Sequence record: OQ992558.1
Reading direction: 5' to 3' (one strand)
Length of the DNA stretch: 64,000 bases
From: Escherichia phage L14
How positions within the stretch are numbered: position 1 is the stretch's first letter; each line of letters opens with the position of its first letter. This document shows positions 1-60,957 of the stretch, piece after piece. Made by a program: the position numbers and the translations under genes. Below the pieces are notes generated by a model. The model made no database searches. It worked only from the letters and a program-made list of their open reading frames with translations, and was not told where the DNA came from.

Positions 1-642
1 ATTTTCTAAAGCAATAGAAGCAGCAACAGCAACAGCTTTAGGAACAGCATTACCTGTTTTAACATCTACATAAACATCACCAACCTTTGATTCAACTTTT
101 GTGAATAACTCAGTTGAAATAGGAGGTACACCTGGAATGTCTTCTAAATTGGCATTTTTACGATAAACCATAATATATGCGTACTTTTTATCATAATCCC
201 AGATTTCCTTTAAAAGAACATATCGACCTGCTCCTTTAGTACGTACTAAACGGTCAGCAATAACTTGCATTTGACGAGCAGCGCCATTTGTTTTACTCTT
301 TAGTACGCGGAATAAGCATGCATCAATTTTATACTGTTTCATTGTTTGAAGAGCAGTATCAAAAACCGCATTAATGACACCAATTGGATTTCCACCCAAG
401 TTTTTAAGTTTAACTAATGATAGTTTCTCATTAACACCTATCATTACGATATGCATCATTTTATCGCCTGGCTTAACGTTTTTATTTGTATCACCGCCAG
501 AGGTGTATGTACAAAATCTAAATCCAGGAAGCACGCTTTCTTCACCGGCTTGAATAGCAAAAATTTGAGGTATTTTATGCTTAGGATTTAAGTTAACAAC
601 CGGCGCCGAAGCGCCGTCAAATAATTCTGTAATAAGTTCCAT
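1..642 (-). CDS. Alt-like ADP-ribosyltransferase paralog, N-terminal part only (gene runs off the window edge)
   Basis: Minus-strand ATG at 640-642 preceded by AAGGA; my translation (MELITELFDGASAPVVNLNPKHKIPQIF...) is open to position 1 and clearly homologous to the N-terminus of the adjacent alt ORF. Confidence 0.7.
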   Translation of the reverse strand, partial: MELITELFDGASAPVVNLNPKHKIPQIFAIQAGEESVLPGFRFCTYTSGGDTNKNVKPGDKMMHIVMIGVNEKLSLVKLKNLGGNPIGVINAVFDTALQTMKQYKIDACLFRVLKSKTNGAARQMQVIADRLVRTKGAGRYVLLKEIWDYDKKYAYIMVYRKNANLEDIPGVPPISTELFTKVESKVGDVYVDVKTGNAVPKAVAVAASIALEN

Positions 643-645
643 GAT

Positions 646-2739
646 TTATCCTTGAATGAACTTGTAAGGCATGTTTGCAATATCTATGCAAGATGCAATA
701 ATTCCAAGAGATGATTCTACTTTTTGTTTAACATTTGATGAAACAAATGATGCAAAGTCAACTCTGTCTTCTATTTCAATATCACCTGTCATTGCAACTA
801 CTTCACCAGTTTCCATTAGACGGTCACCGTCATAAATTACTGATTCAGTGAGTTCTTCCGTAGTCATAACTTCAGCTTGAATGAGTTTTGTATTATTAGA
901 TGTTGTTCCGTCATTATTAGAAGCATCAGTTATTTTATTAACTTTGACCATCAATCCGCGTGGTAGAATAACTTCAGCTTCTGTTGCTATTCCGAGGCTT
1001 CCTGGATATACAACATTAACTTTATGAGCTCCATCAATTGCCCATCCTATTTGAACTTTAACGTATTCGGGATTTTCTTTATACGCTCTTATTTCGTTTG
1101 AATTAATAGTTATTCCTTCTTCATTTTTATCAACTGTCAATTCATTACGAGCTTCTGGTTCTAAAAGACCAATACCAGCATGTGTAATTCCAAAACGTCC
1201 AAAAATGATAGGAGTTAAAGAAGTAGATACAAAATTTCTGAAATAGAACACTTTATTTTTAACTAGTGCTTCGTATATAGGAGCAGTCATGCTTTGAGCA
1301 CGATAAACTGTAATGCCTTCTGGTATACGGTCACCATTTTCAAAGGCTGAATCTAAATTATTTATCGCAGATTCAATTTCTTTTTCACTCATTACCTCAT
1401 ATCGTTCTGGATTGTAGCGACCTAAAAGAAGATTATTGATGTCAGTATATCCTGAACCACAATACTCTCTGATGCCGCGCTTTTGTGATGGAGTATATTT
1501 AGAACCATCACGAGCAATAGTAATATCAATCATTGGACCTGCACCAATTCCAGAAAAACTATAAATCATTCTTTTGAGGAATTTAGTTTTTGCTGCGTTC
1601 CAGGAATTTTTAGTTATTTCTTCCCAGACTTCATCTGTCTGTCCTTTACGAGTTTTATTATGTTTATCAAGCCAGTTATCTTTATATTCTTCAAATAATT
1701 GATTAACAGCTGCTGCGTATTTCTCTAAACATTTTATTGAAGTAGTTGGTTCATTTTTAATCGCATTAAGAATTACATCTTTAATTTTTTCAGAAACTTC
1801 ATTAACCTCACTTTTTGAAAAGAATTTATAGTCATAATGAAGTTCATCTGCAGTTCCTTCAGCAATAATTTTTGCTGCCTTAGTTTTAGAAGCTAATGAA
1901 TTAATTCCAAGCTTCATTTCTTCTGCTTCGGGAATTAAAGGAGCTGTAGCAGGTTTATTGAAATTAGCTGCGGTAGATTCATACTTCTGGAATAATTCAC
2001 TTTCAAATCTAGAAGATTCTAATGACTGACTTTGTGCAATTGCTCTACGGGAAATTTTAACTTTAACGATTACAGCTTGATCAGAACGTTTATCGTTTTC
2101 TTGCGCAATAGATGCTGCAATTGCCTCATTTTTAGTTACTTGAGCTCCAGTATCTTTATTGATATAAACATCACCGACCTTCGATTCAACTTTAGTAAAG
2201 AGCTCGGTACTAATTTCCGGAACTCCTGGAATGTCTTCTAGTGATACATTTTTGCGATGTATAAGAATATATGCATACTTTTTATCATAATCCCAGAGTT
2301 CCTTAAGAAGGACGTATCTGCCACCTGAACGACTACGGATAAGTCTATCAGCAATAACTTGAATTTGTCGAGCTTGACCAGCGGTTTTAGACTTAAGAAT
2401 ACGAAGCATACAAGCATCAATTTTATACTGACGCATTGTTTGCATTGCAACAGTAAAAACTGAATTGATATAATTAATTGGGCTTGGACCAAGACCTTTT
2501 AATTTAGCAATTGAACCTTTAGCAGTTAATGTAAAAGGAACAATATGCATCATTTTATCGCCCATTTTTAAATCGCGATTAGTATCACCTCCAGATGTAT
2601 AGGTACATAAACGAAAGCCTGGTTGTTCAATTGCATCATCAACATGAACTGAAAAAATTTGCGGTATTTTCTTCTTTGGATTTAAGTTTGTAATCGGAAG
2701 AGTAGTATCTTCGTCAAATAATTCTGTAATAAGTTCCAT
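646..2739 (-). CDS. alt: Alt ADP-ribosyltransferase (packaged internal head protein)
   Basis: 698-aa ORF recognised as T4 Alt; start moved to second ATG (MELITELF) which has GAGG at 5-nt spacing. Confidence 0.85.
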   Translation of the reverse strand: MELITELFDEDTTLPITNLNPKKKIPQIFSVHVDDAIEQPGFRLCTYTSGGDTNRDLKMGDKMMHIVPFTLTAKGSIAKLKGLGPSPINYINSVFTVAMQTMRQYKIDACMLRILKSKTAGQARQIQVIADRLIRSRSGGRYVLLKELWDYDKKYAYILIHRKNVSLEDIPGVPEISTELFTKVESKVGDVYINKDTGAQVTKNEAIAASIAQENDKRSDQAVIVKVKISRRAIAQSQSLESSRFESELFQKYESTAANFNKPATAPLIPEAEEMKLGINSLASKTKAAKIIAEGTADELHYDYKFFSKSEVNEVSEKIKDVILNAIKNEPTTSIKCLEKYAAAVNQLFEEYKDNWLDKHNKTRKGQTDEVWEEITKNSWNAAKTKFLKRMIYSFSGIGAGPMIDITIARDGSKYTPSQKRGIREYCGSGYTDINNLLLGRYNPERYEVMSEKEIESAINNLDSAFENGDRIPEGITVYRAQSMTAPIYEALVKNKVFYFRNFVSTSLTPIIFGRFGITHAGIGLLEPEARNELTVDKNEEGITINSNEIRAYKENPEYVKVQIGWAIDGAHKVNVVYPGSLGIATEAEVILPRGLMVKVNKITDASNNDGTTSNNTKLIQAEVMTTEELTESVIYDGDRLMETGEVVAMTGDIEIEDRVDFASFVSSNVKQKVESSLGIIASCIDIANMPYKFIQG

Positions 2740-7560: not shown

Positions 7561-7588
7561 AAATAAAAAAGGACTCCCGAAGGAGTCC
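7561..7588 (-). terminator. rho-independent terminator, GGACUCC-UUCG-GGAGUCC stem-loop plus U-run
   Basis: perfect 7-bp stem with UUCG tetraloop followed by UUUUUUAUUU on minus strand, directly after ORF 7594..7770. Confidence 0.7.
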
Positions 7589-7593
7589 TCAAC

Positions 7594-11422: not shown

Positions 11423-12623
<1,201 letters not shown>

Positions 12624-14058: not shown

Positions 14059-15646
<1,588 letters not shown>

Positions 15647-31938: not shown

Positions 31939-31965
31939 GGGAGCCTTCGGGTTCCCTTTTTCTTT
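31939..31965 (+). terminator. stem-loop with UUCG tetraloop and U-run after gene 35
   Basis: GGGAGCC-UUCG-GGUUCCC followed by UUUUUCUUU. Confidence 0.55.
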
Positions 31966-40338: not shown

Positions 40339-40488
40339 TTACTGCATGACTGTGATAACTGTCATGATAACACGTTGAATTCCGAACGCAAGAAGACCTC
40401 CTGCTACGGCAGGAACAACACCTAAACCCGACAGTAAAATGCCACCAGATACTAATGCAGCGCTTGTAATACCTATGAATGGACTCAT
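40339..40488 (-). CDS. small hydrophobic protein (49 aa)
   Basis: not in ORF track (under 60 aa); ATG overlaps gene 52 stop (ATGA); two predicted TM segments. Confidence 0.4.
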   Translation of the reverse strand: MSPFIGITSAALVSGGILLSGLGVVPAVAGGLLAFGIQRVIMTVITVMQ

Positions 40489-41813
40489 TTGATTTCCTCT
40501 AAATCTTTGGTGTATTCTGTAACTACATCAGTAGTTTTCCAATATTCGTTTTCTTCTTTTTTAGCTTTAGCTTCTTCAGCAAGTTTCTTTGCTTCGTCGG
40601 AAGTCATATGAAAAATATTCATTCCAACTAGTTTATCAACATAAGAAGAATACATATCAATTTTAGAAAGTTCTTCGGTCAGTTCTTTGCGAGTTTTACC
40701 CTGCACAACAATTTCACCTGAAATTACTTTCTTAATGAAATGTGCCTTGGCAAAAGCTAAACGAAATGCTGATTCAGTTTCTTTGATTTTGTTATCAATT
40801 CGTTTTTGGACATAAGTTTTACGAACTTCAACGAAGTCTTTGATTAAATCAACTACATTATCGTAAACTTGCAGCTTTCCTTTCTCATTAATGACGGTAA
40901 TATTCTGGGAACGACGCTCAATCAACCCGAAGTCTTTCATAATTTTTGCATGGCGTTCTTCTTCATTATCGCTTAAGGAATATTCTTTTCGGAATTTAAC
41001 TTTGAAGCCAAAGCCATGCTCACCACAAGCATCATCCCATGTAATGAAGCCTTTATCTTCAAGCGGGTCTAAGATTTTACTCACATAAGTTTCACGATCA
41101 TACTTATATGGAATCTCAGTGATATGCATTTGAGTTCGTGAAGTAAACTTATATGTTCCACGAATTTCATATTGCCCATCAATTTCAACGACTTCACCAC
41201 GAAATTCTGGGAATTCTACCTTCGGTTTAGTTACTTTCTTTCCTTGAAGAGCTTGCAGTACAGCTTTCTTGACAGAAGAAACACTATGAGGAAGAATGTA
41301 AGTTGCATAACCAGTTGCAATACCGGAAACGCCATTAAGAAGAACAGTAGGAATAATAGGCAAATAGAAAGCAGGCGGAATGTGTTCTTTATCTTGATGT
41401 ACTGGAGCATATTCAGTATCTTTATATACGTTATAGAAATTTTTACTTACACGAGCAAAAATATAACGACTTGCTGCTGCCTTTTGGACAGTACGAGAAC
41501 CAAAGTTTCCTTGACCGTCTAACAGAGGAAAGTTATTATTCCAAGTGTTAGCCATCAAAGCACCTGCGTCTTGCGCAGAGTTTTCACCATGATGATATCC
41601 AAGGTCCGCTACACCGCCTGCGATAGAAGCGAGTTTGTGAAACTTATCTTTATTTCCTCGTGCCAAATCAAGAGCTCGAGCAATAACAAATCGTTGAACT
41701 GGCTTAAATCCGTCAATCATATTTGGAATGGCACGATTTTCAACCGTGTACATAGCATAAGCCAATGCTTCATTATCAATGATACTTTTTAAATCACGAT
41801 TATTCAGTTGCAT
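40485..41813 (-). CDS. 52: DNA topoisomerase II medium subunit (GyrA-like)
   Basis: 442 aa, recognised as T4 gp52. Confidence 0.93.
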   Translation of the reverse strand: MQLNNRDLKSIIDNEALAYAMYTVENRAIPNMIDGFKPVQRFVIARALDLARGNKDKFHKLASIAGGVADLGYHHGENSAQDAGALMANTWNNNFPLLDGQGNFGSRTVQKAAASRYIFARVSKNFYNVYKDTEYAPVHQDKEHIPPAFYLPIIPTVLLNGVSGIATGYATYILPHSVSSVKKAVLQALQGKKVTKPKVEFPEFRGEVVEIDGQYEIRGTYKFTSRTQMHITEIPYKYDRETYVSKILDPLEDKGFITWDDACGEHGFGFKVKFRKEYSLSDNEEERHAKIMKDFGLIERRSQNITVINEKGKLQVYDNVVDLIKDFVEVRKTYVQKRIDNKIKETESAFRLAFAKAHFIKKVISGEIVVQGKTRKELTEELSKIDMYSSYVDKLVGMNIFHMTSDEAKKLAEEAKAKKEENEYWKTTDVVTEYTKDLEEIK

Positions 41814-41950
41814 AAATTTACCATACTAGTGAATGTAGTGCCATAATAACATCAGAAATGAAAAGCACGACTTGAATTAATCCGAACATTATTCCGTAAT
41901 ATAATGCTATCAATAAAATAGCAAGGGCTAATGAATAGCCCAAGATTTTC

Positions 41951-42109
41951 TTAATCATTAGTAGATAACAACACAAATGTTAAATATGCACACATACCCT
42001 GAGCTAAAGCTTGCGAAAACACACTGCTGGCATCAATACAGATAGTTAAAACACATGCTACTATCCAACAAATAAATGAAATAACTCCTAATAATTTTGC
42101 GATATTCAT
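41951..42109 (-). CDS. ac: small membrane protein (52 aa), ac-like
   Basis: not in ORF track; ATG with GAGGAAAAT RBS overlapping stp stop; hydrophobic; size and position match T4 ac, sequence identity not verified. Confidence 0.55.
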   Translation of the reverse strand: MNIAKLLGVISFICWIVACVLTICIDASSVFSQALAQGMCAYLTFVLLSTND

Positions 42110-42116
42110 ATTTTCC

Positions 42117-42197
42117 TCACTGGCGTCCGAAGACGCCTTTAGTTTTAAGATTATTACGATAGAACTGCATCACGTGTTCGTTGTGGAAATTACTCAT
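42117..42197 (-). CDS. stp: Stp peptide (26 aa), activator of host anticodon nuclease PrrC
   Basis: not in ORF track; translation [26 protein letters not shown] matches my memory of T4 Stp; ATG overlaps ndd stop. Confidence 0.8.
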
Positions 42198-42655
42198 TAA
42201 TATGCCTGCAAAACGAATTTAAAATTATCAGCCAACATACGGTTCATTTCTTCAAGTGTTTGATACTCAGAATGATGATTACGAGTAAACGCTAAAGCTA
42301 ACTGTCCTTTTCCAAATCCCGTCGTCAGAGGTTTCATCTTAGAAGCAGGCAGATAAAATACTGTGTATGGAACATTGTTATTTGCAATAGTACGTGCAAG
42401 CTGAGACCGACGTTGACGAATATGACTTAGAACTGCACTGAATCCTTGCTTAGAACGCTGATTACCTACATAAAATCGTGCAGACACGCATGGATTACTA
42501 AATGGACGACCATCTAATTTACTCACTAAAAAGTAAAATCCAGGTTTAGATAAAAAGTCTTTATGCGGAGTTCCCAAAAACCATTCACCGTTCTTGATTG
42601 TACCAATAACGGTAGCGCCCGCATTATTCAGATCAGTAACAGTCATGTATTTCAT
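42197..42655 (-). CDS. ndd: nucleoid disruption protein Ndd
   Basis: from internal ATG ([16 protein letters not shown]...) with GAGGA RBS; ORF-track start is a GTG extension. Confidence 0.8.
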
Positions 42656-45005: not shown

Positions 45006-45033
45006 AATTTTCCTTAGTTAAGGGCCGAAGCCC

Positions 45034-45972
45034 TTATTTAAATTGTTCAGTAACGTCTTCAACTACTTCGTATTGGCAGGTACGCATTTTAGCATCGTTG
45101 TAATCAATCGGAATTGATACTACATCACGCGGATGCACTTTAACTTTTACAACTCGACTGGTTGAACTGCCAAAGTGACGAATATAAGATTTAGAACACA
45201 CATGCAGACCACGAGAACAAGTTTGTGTATCATCGTCATTCACACGAGTACGTGGCATTTTAACTACTTTACCAGGACTGTTATCAAAAGTATTTGAATG
45301 ACAGTCAAAGTAATTGCTGCGAACTACTTTCCAAGCATAGAAGTAACCATCTTCTGTAATTTCAATATCGTTTGCTACCAAGAAATCAAAGAGTCGAGAT
45401 ACCGCTTTTTGGCTTGGGTTTTCCAACAGATTTTCCAAGAACGGAAAATAAAATTCAAAGTTTTCGCCTTTTTCCATCGAATCGAGAATACGATCAACTA
45501 AACCAGACCGCAATTCAATATTTTGATAGAACAAGCTTCCACCTTCAATTCGAACATCACCGGAAATATATTTTTCAACGGCGCGACGAACGTTAATTTT
45601 TTGCGCCGCTTCTTCCAATTTATCTGTAACAAGCAGATTAAGAATTTCCTGGAAGTTTGAATGAGTATTAGGAGTTGCGTTATAAGTTACACCGTCAACA
45701 GTAATTGAAATGAATTTTTTAGATGCATTCCAAATAATGTCAGATTTAGCAACTGGAGCAATAACTGCATCGCTATTAACTTTAACTGTAATGTCACCGC
45801 TAATAGTAACTTTAGAGCGTTCTGCTTCTTCAGCATTTTTCAAAACACGACGGATTGTGTCAACCGATACACCTTGCCAATCAGCCAATTCCTGCTGGGT
45901 GTAATTACCACTTGAATACAGTTTAACAATTTCAGCTTGTTCGTTTTTGGTCAGGCATTTAATATTGTACAT
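45034..45972 (-). CDS. rIIB: rIIB (rapid lysis / Rex exclusion escape)
   Basis: 312 aa, recognised as T4 rIIB. Confidence 0.9.
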   Translation of the reverse strand: MYNIKCLTKNEQAEIVKLYSSGNYTQQELADWQGVSVDTIRRVLKNAEEAERSKVTISGDITVKVNSDAVIAPVAKSDIIWNASKKFISITVDGVTYNATPNTHSNFQEILNLLVTDKLEEAAQKINVRRAVEKYISGDVRIEGGSLFYQNIELRSGLVDRILDSMEKGENFEFYFPFLENLLENPSQKAVSRLFDFLVANDIEITEDGYFYAWKVVRSNYFDCHSNTFDNSPGKVVKMPRTRVNDDDTQTCSRGLHVCSKSYIRHFGSSTSRVVKVKVHPRDVVSIPIDYNDAKMRTCQYEVVEDVTEQFK

Positions 45973-60921: not shown

Positions 60922-60949
60922 AATGAAAAAAGGACTCCCGAAGGAGTCC
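60922..60949 (-). terminator. rho-independent terminator after soc (same GGACUCC-UUCG-GGAGUCC hairpin as at 7.57 kb)
   Basis: stem-loop plus U-run immediately downstream of soc stop. Confidence 0.7.
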
Positions 60950-60957
60950 TTGAATTA

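Follow-up and report, generated by a model that had tools for sequence, protein, structure and literature searches.

What do the small genes packed between ndd and gene 52 of Escherichia phage L14 encode, and what is an RNA hairpin of the C(UUCG)G type doing inside the reading frame of one of them? We examined both questions in the window, that is, the whole 64,000-nucleotide stretch of record OQ992558.1, whose numbering is used throughout. The phage is a Tequatrovirus; the region is about 95% identical to the T4 records among those listed and 92 to 99.7% identical to hundreds of Tequatrovirus genomes. The genes stp, ac, 52.1, pseT and rnlA, the mechanism of Stp and the CUUCGG hairpin class are already known, and the new points are modest: codon-choice statistics, natural hairpin variants, and unannotated Stp-like peptides in siphoviruses.

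Three small genes between ndd and gene 52

The genes ndd-stp-ac-52.1-52 form a packed run on the minus strand:

Positions 42197 to 42655, minus strand: ndd, nucleoid disruption protein (96.7% identity to T4 Ndd).
Positions 42117 to 42197, including the TGA stop, minus strand: stp, 26 aa (ORF list, T4 identity, Pfam, PHROG and synteny).
Positions 41951 to 42109, minus strand: ac, acridine resistance locus, encoding the 52-aa hydrophobic protein Ac (ORF list, T4 identity and phrog_2501).
Positions 41818 to 41958, minus strand: 52.1, 46-aa predicted membrane protein (tblastn, Pfam and T4 annotation).
Positions 40485 to 41813, minus strand: gene 52, topoisomerase II medium subunit (99.8% identity to T4 gp52), the downstream end of the run.

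The preliminary description of this DNA had assigned the 26-aa peptide to T4 Stp, and alignment of the two bears this out, with 26 of 26 residues identical to T4 Stp NP_049878. The peptide also matches Pfam family PF08133, "anticodon nuclease activator," at 75.3 bits (cutoff, 25) over residues 1 to 26 of 26 and PHROG 6763 with an E value of 4e-21, and on its sequence the 26-aa product is a member of PF08133/Stp. In T4, stp is a genetically defined gene, and the RefSeq annotation places it in the same position between ndd and ac, with the same 1-nt TAATG overlap with ndd; the two stp genes show 2 synonymous differences, use the same hairpin-forming codons, and specify no protein difference. The N-terminal 18 residues of Stp, including residues 4 to 14, are identical to those of T4, and the N terminus is almost invariant across lineages. 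Loss-of-function mutations in Stp cluster at residues 4 to 14 (PMC3014915). In the secondary account of Penner et al. 1995 given in PMC3014915, the activity is carried by the N-terminal 18 residues, and deletion of the last 8 stp codons leaves both activities only moderately lower.

The second small gene, first described as encoding a 52-aa hydrophobic ac-like protein, proved to be ac on the basis of 96% identity to T4 Ac (NP_049877), a match to phrog_2501 (E = 4e-25) and synteny; many records carry the label "acridine resistance protein," and no Pfam family exists for Ac. Its product, a membrane peptide of 52 aa, reads MNIAKLLGVISFICWIVACVLTICIDASSVFSQALAQGMCAYLTFVLLSTND and carries one extra Thr codon near the C terminus compared with the 51-aa T4 protein, a form that is common to other Tequatroviruses. 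Loss of ac in T4 results in acridine resistance, a genetic phenotype known for T4 only. The third gene, 52.1, had been missed, so that two small genes rather than three were counted between ndd and gene 52; its product shows 93% identity to T4 gp52.1 NP_049876 by tblastn and matches Pfam PF24129 (DUF7396) at 78 bits. The order of ac and 52.1 and their 8-nt overlap are the same in T4.

The small genes had also been described as chained by overlapping stop and start signals, and this holds at two of the boundaries. The ndd TAA stop shares 1 nt with the stp ATG (TAATG), which suggests that translation of stp may be coupled, and the end of ac and the start of 52.1 share 8 nt (ATGATTAA); gene 52 starts 4 nt past 52.1. 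The genes stp and ac do not overlap, since the stp UGA is followed by GGAAAAU and then by the ac AUG, placing the two 7 nt apart. The Shine-Dalgarno (SD) sequence of ac, GAGG, overlaps the stp stop codon, and the junction that contains both was invariant in 13 of 13 distinct hairpin-type junctions:

Positions 42107 to 42119, minus strand: stp-ac junction UGAGGAAAAUAUG, consisting of the stp stop, GAGG (42118-42115), a 5-nt spacer and the ac AUG.

About 100 Tequatrovirus records (L003, L028 and L030 among the loci collected) have a second, 41%-identical paralogue of ac after stp in place of ac, and in the record examined, FriedrichZschokke (MZ501067.1, L003 912-1067), the paralogue stands between stp and ac. 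The start of the paralogue is preceded by the same hairpin-RBS junction.

A C(UUCG)G hairpin in the last codons of stp

Immediately upstream of this junction, the stp reading frame contains the following element, identified from the sequence, its folds and a census of the window:

Positions 42137 to 42122, minus strand: C(UUCG)G hairpin GGCGUC-UUCG-GACGCC, inside stp codons 21 to 26.

The stem-loop first noticed as GCGUC-UUCG-GACGC is real, with a stem of 6 perfect pairs rather than 5 and a UUCG loop closed by a C-G pair. It spans the codons G21 to R25, as proposed, and in addition the first base of Q26, and its 3' end lies 2 nt upstream of the stp stop and 12 nt upstream of the ac AUG. The base of the hairpin, at about 42,121, corresponds to about 165,510 in T4. 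Folding of the stp mRNA gave a local hairpin of -10.0 kcal/mol (z = -4.3) when folded alone, and the centroid structure of the 121-nt context retained it as the sole element; there was no larger structure, the 121-nt context folding no better than its shuffles (z = -0.30). The codons that form the stem are rare in this phage (relative use, GGC 0.15, GUC 0.08 and CGC 0.13). For the peptide GVFGRQ, the observed codons tie for the most stable among 1,536 synonymous encodings, with -11.5 kcal/mol compared to -3.0 for the usage-weighted mean, and an equally good or better fold has a usage-weighted probability of 5e-4, a test that is post hoc, since the site was picked because of its hairpin.

Hairpins with a UUCG loop are far more frequent in the window than Markov-1 simulations predict: 11 with a stem of at least 5 bp (0.7 expected) and 9 with a stem of at least 6 bp (0.2 expected), with an approximately 45-fold excess of the CUUCGG motif. 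The minus strand, which carries most of the window's early and middle genes, has eight C(UUCG)G hairpins; all are C-G closed, and six of the eight begin at or just after a stop codon. A G+C-rich hairpin is found just upstream of 5 of the 13 strongest minus-strand RBS motifs, and two of these, at 45036 and 6710, show nearly the same layout as stp/ac, hairpin-N2-U(G/A)AGGAAAAU...AUG; the stp-ac junction motif likewise comes after CUUCGG hairpins at 45019 and 6693. Taken together, the enrichment, the placement and the codon choice make the stp hairpin a non-chance feature.

The first description of C(UUCG)G hairpins in T4 mRNA, as "extraordinarily stable," is reportedly that of Tuerk et al. in 1988. 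With this class the stp hairpin shares (i) the C-G-closed UUCG loop, (ii) the G+C-rich stem in an A+T-rich genome, (iii) the location on the minus (early and middle gene) strand, and (iv) the position at a gene end beside the next RBS. In contrast to the class, it lies wholly within the ORF, in the last six codons, rather than at or after the stop, and it is therefore also translated (G-V-F-G-R). CUUCGG hairpins in T4 mRNA have already been described (PMC4371310).

Several other stem-loops of the window were recorded. The only other coding-embedded example, CGGCGC-UUCG-GCGCCG at 601 to 616 (minus strand), is located within a short frame repeating the alt N terminus (MELITELFD...), at the site of alt.-1/alt.-2, which the T4 annotation treats as an old duplication. 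Near-identical stems, GGACUCC-UUCG-GGAGUCC, occur at 60930 to 60951 and at 7570 to 7589 (minus strand), each followed by a U-run and a GTTTAC element, with TATAAT in addition after the 60951 site; we take the two sites to resemble the terminator-plus-early-promoter cassettes by which T4-type phages have been proposed to shuffle genes. Inside the 52.1 coding region, a second hairpin, GGGCUA-UUCAU-UAGCCC followed by UUGCUAUUUU (41925 to 41941, minus strand), was terminator-like on both strands by scan, and the homologous site in NC_054924 is annotated as "terminator" and then "promoter."

How far hairpin and peptide depend on each other was judged from stp loci gathered with a degenerate pattern of the Stp N terminus, blind to the hairpin codons, together with annotated records; anchoring on Ndd in viral contigs yielded only 5 loci, and the N-terminal pattern did better. 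Roughly 800 phage records contain stp; of approximately 35 distinct stp sequences inspected, the 13 distinct hairpin-type junctions were compared, and the types found are as follows:

Hairpin-type, 13 junctions (Tequatrovirus, Gaprivervirus and roughly 170-kb T4-like relatives): stem retained, with pairing in 98.7% of cells; -8.3 to -10.0 kcal/mol; tail GVFGR followed by Q, L, P or a stop.
VR7: loop UUCG to UUUG, synonymous; -10.0 kcal/mol; tail GVFGRP.
UPEC07: U-A to U-G wobble, synonymous; -9.4 kcal/mol; tail GVFGRP.
Roughly 170-kb relatives L009, L011 and L020: outermost G-C to G-U; -8.3 kcal/mol; tail GVFGR, 25 aa.
FriedrichZschokke: CGC to AGC, one pair broken; -4.2 kcal/mol; tail GVFGSQ.
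ECP52 and vB_Eco_F25: intact stem with an inverted loop (CGAA); -9.1 kcal/mol; tail GVRRRQ.
T2-type (T2, TOPO13 and L024): no hairpin and a different ac RBS; 0 kcal/mol; tail ...NFGILGFKK.
Kagunavirus-type siphoviruses: no hairpin, GGA GUG UUU GGA AAA UGA; 0 kcal/mol; tail GVFGK.

Three Tevenvirinae genera retain the stem, and the stem-breaking variant of FriedrichZschokke was found in 1 record among the 102 with its junction type. No compensatory covariation was detected in the 13 junctions, in which none of the 6 pairs changed on both sides and the changes seen were 2 wobbles and 1 break, so that stem conservation cannot be told apart from conservation of the peptide or of the nucleotide sequence itself. 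The Stp tail is under a constraint of its own, as GVFG is kept in siphovirus Stp without the hairpin. Hairpin and peptide are nevertheless separable in both directions, since the Kagunavirus-type sequences have GVFG without the hairpin, two phages have the stem with GVRRRQ, and the T2-type sequences have neither. The coupling of RNA structure and peptide that the preliminary description had seen is thus physical and applies to this lineage, not to these three other types, and the T4-type Stp tail amounts to GVFG(K/R) encoded by the best-folding codons.

The inverted-loop hairpin, GGCGTC-CGAA-GACGCC, is present in ON782582.1 (ECP52, L051 461-476) and in OP870144.1 (about 163340-163392); the inversion turns the tail GVFGRQ into GVRRRQ and looks as if it arose by template switching or by inversion of the palindrome. 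In the T2-type sequences (T2, L047; TOPO13, L050; and L024) the RBS of ac is UUGAGGAGAA, which contains GGAG, and the T4-type junction contains GAGG only. GGAG is the motif cut by the RegB endoribonuclease (PMC3014915).

Possible roles of the stp hairpin

The reading that we consider probable is that stp, ac and 52.1 are the known T4 genes and that the hairpin is one of the CUUCGG hairpins found at T4 gene ends, with an RNA-level function, most likely as an element of RNA stability or folding. The last six codons of stp, rare and G+C-rich, form a 6-bp C(UUCG)G hairpin that we read as a member of this known class, placed inside the ORF here because the C-terminal tail of Stp, largely dispensable (PMC3014915), runs through it. 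The hairpin would act when free of ribosomes, as a local stability or folding element, e.g., as a barrier to 3'-to-5' exonucleases that could protect the ndd-stp segment. A literature search turned up no usable Ribo-seq or transcript-end data for stp in T4. A stronger version is possible, although we hold it only tentatively: the Stp tail may be a dual-coding segment under RNA-level selection, in which an ancestral GVFGK was recoded into the C(UUCG)G hairpin. Such recoding would have taken three synonymous changes and a K-to-R replacement, GVFGK being still unstructured in the Kagunavirus-type Stp, and the hairpin might then set a boundary of stability or expression between ndd-stp and ac-52.1-52. 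If true, this would be a clean example of a working micro-peptide gene onto which an RNA element has been superimposed.

The main alternative to a role in RNA stability or folding is that the hairpin tunes the translation of ac, and of 52.1 coupled to it, by shaping 30S binding or by tying initiation to ribosomes that finish stp. The hairpin does lie 12 nt upstream of the ac AUG, the layout hairpin-N2-UGAGGAAAAU-AUG recurs at 45036 and 6710, a hairpin precedes 5 of the 13 strongest RBS motifs, all 13 lineages share one junction sequence despite divergence of the ac-like gene that follows it, and the T2-type phages have both hairpin and RBS sequence replaced. We nevertheless regard this role as unlikely, as the hairpin pairs with neither the SD sequence nor the AUG, and most recodings leave the stretch from SD to AUG slightly more accessible in thermodynamic terms than the native hairpin does. 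The specific proposal that the hairpin keeps the ac RBS open was rejected: opening the site costs 3.73 kcal/mol with the native sequence against 2.86 +/- 0.96 kcal/mol in 400 synonymous recodings, 85% of which were at least as accessible as the native sequence. That no gain in RBS accessibility is predicted would also be expected if the hairpin had no function of its own and either followed from constraint on the Stp C terminus (GVFGR) or persisted neutrally, a reading that can further draw on the lack of covariation in the stem, the conservation of GVFG in distant siphovirus Stp without the hairpin, and the T2-type phages that lack it. A pure by-product, however, fits the codon choice and the enrichment poorly, with observed codons that are rare yet tie for the most stable of 1,536 (P of about 5e-4) and a CUUCGG motif over-represented about 45-fold in the window; moreover, two records retain the stem though the peptide has become GVRRRQ, and the 8 C-terminal residues of Stp are largely dispensable (PMC3014915). 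We therefore find this explanation improbable.

Two further readings treat the palindrome as a signal in transcription or in recombination. Termination could concern the early transcripts of the minus strand or, on the plus strand, where the sequence reads GGCGUCCGAAGACGCC and then UUUAGUUUUA, antisense late transcripts; the plus-strand form was flagged as terminator-like by scan, and the CUUCGG hairpins at 60951 and 7589 precede U-runs and look like terminators. The stp hairpin shares the G+C-rich CUUCGG stem-loop with those intrinsic terminators and terminator-plus-early-promoter cassettes of T4-type phages but has neither a U-run nor a promoter after it, an RBS and a start codon standing there instead. 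On the minus strand it is followed by AGUGAGGAAAAUAUG, and read-through is needed for ac, 52.1 and 52 downstream; an intrinsic terminator on this strand was thus ruled out, given the missing U-run and the essential genes downstream. A plus-strand terminator of late antisense RNA was likewise rejected, as there is no late promoter TATAAATA within about 10 kb upstream on that strand, the nearest lying at 31965; the plus-strand T-rich tail is interrupted, and the census shows an orientation bias, with the UUCG form on the minus strand. Overall, a terminator role appears very improbable. A recombination-joint role has been proposed for the promoter-stem-loop cassettes of T4-type phages, and by analogy hairpin and RBS could form a conserved DNA patch at which small genes are shuffled. 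About 34 nt (the hairpin and UGAGGAAAAUAUG) are indeed nearly identical though the gene downstream varies, being ac, the inserted ac paralogue or other small hydrophobic ORFs; some phages have a gene other than ndd upstream of stp, and the loop inversion in two records shows that the palindrome is active at the DNA level. Against this, the downstream genes look like fast-diverging members of the Ac family (similar in size, hydrophobic, and with a C-terminal S/K-N-D) and not like inserts of unrelated origin, the stem-loop lacks the promoter that comes after it in the cassettes, and strong purifying selection on the junction for any RNA-level reason would give the same pattern, so that we consider a joint of this kind quite unlikely.

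The stp tail offers a compact natural example for probing what gene-end CUUCGG hairpins do in phage mRNAs, as the peptide is largely dispensable there and natural variants exist with the stem kept, the stem broken or the loop inverted.

Stp, the PrrC conflict and unannotated relatives

The preliminary description had also placed stp in an arms-race module with pseT and rnlA, and both genes are present in the window:

Positions 11426 to 12325, minus strand: pseT, polynucleotide kinase/phosphatase (tblastn, 92.4% identity over all 301 aa of T4 Pnk).
Positions 14062 to 15183, minus strand: rnlA, RNA ligase 1 (tblastn, 99.2% identity over all 374 aa of T4 Rnl1).

By binding EcoprrI, a type Ic restriction complex of the host, Stp prevents the restriction of DNA; EcoprrI and EcoR124I are targets of this inhibition (PMC3014915). 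In prr+ hosts, Stp unmasks the associated PrrC anticodon nuclease, which leads to cleavage of tRNA-Lys, and the cut tRNA is repaired by Pnk (pseT), which heals it, and Rnl1 (rnlA), which seals it (PMC3014915). From its identity to the tested T4 peptide, Stp of this phage is predicted to have both the anti-restriction activity and the PrrC-activating one. Judged by the presence of full-length stp, pseT and rnlA (100%, 92.4% and 99.2% identity to the T4 proteins, respectively), the phage side of the PrrC conflict is complete in the window. The earlier statement that the whole module is complete therefore stands for the phage half, in agreement with PMC3014915; PrrC is host encoded, so the window holds this half only, and the anti-restriction benefit had been omitted. 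Elsewhere in the window, the Alt ADP-ribosyltransferase (positions 649 to 2739, minus strand) is about 70% identical to T4 Alt, compared with 92 to 99% for its neighbours, and is thus locally divergent.

The absence of stp and ac from the ORF track, already pointed out in the preliminary description, was an effect of the length threshold. Among the 28 listed records with 100% full-length identity to the peptide, stp was named under the match in one (RB55), and the record of ECP52 annotates ndd as extending through stp. Stp-like peptides were also observed in siphoviruses of Kagunavirus (Guernseyvirinae) and Nouzillyvirus (Drexlerviridae), as well as in metagenome contigs of 43 to 50 kb. They occur in two forms, of 25 aa and 26 aa, and are unannotated in both siphovirus records examined:

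L052, positions 2501 to 2575 (MH051334.1, 3452 to 3526): siphovirus Stp-like locus.
L053, positions 1975 to 2049 (OR767160.1): siphovirus Stp-like locus.
L015 to L019 and L022 to L043: further Stp-like loci.

A search of one paper collection for Stp in Kagunavirus and Nouzillyvirus found nothing on such peptides. The resemblance of these peptides to Stp suggests that anti-type-Ic restriction by Stp may reach well beyond the T-even phages. Since this 26-aa gene lacks annotation in most deposited Tequatrovirus genomes and in both of those siphovirus records, surveys that collect anti-restriction genes and defence triggers automatically will undercount stp.
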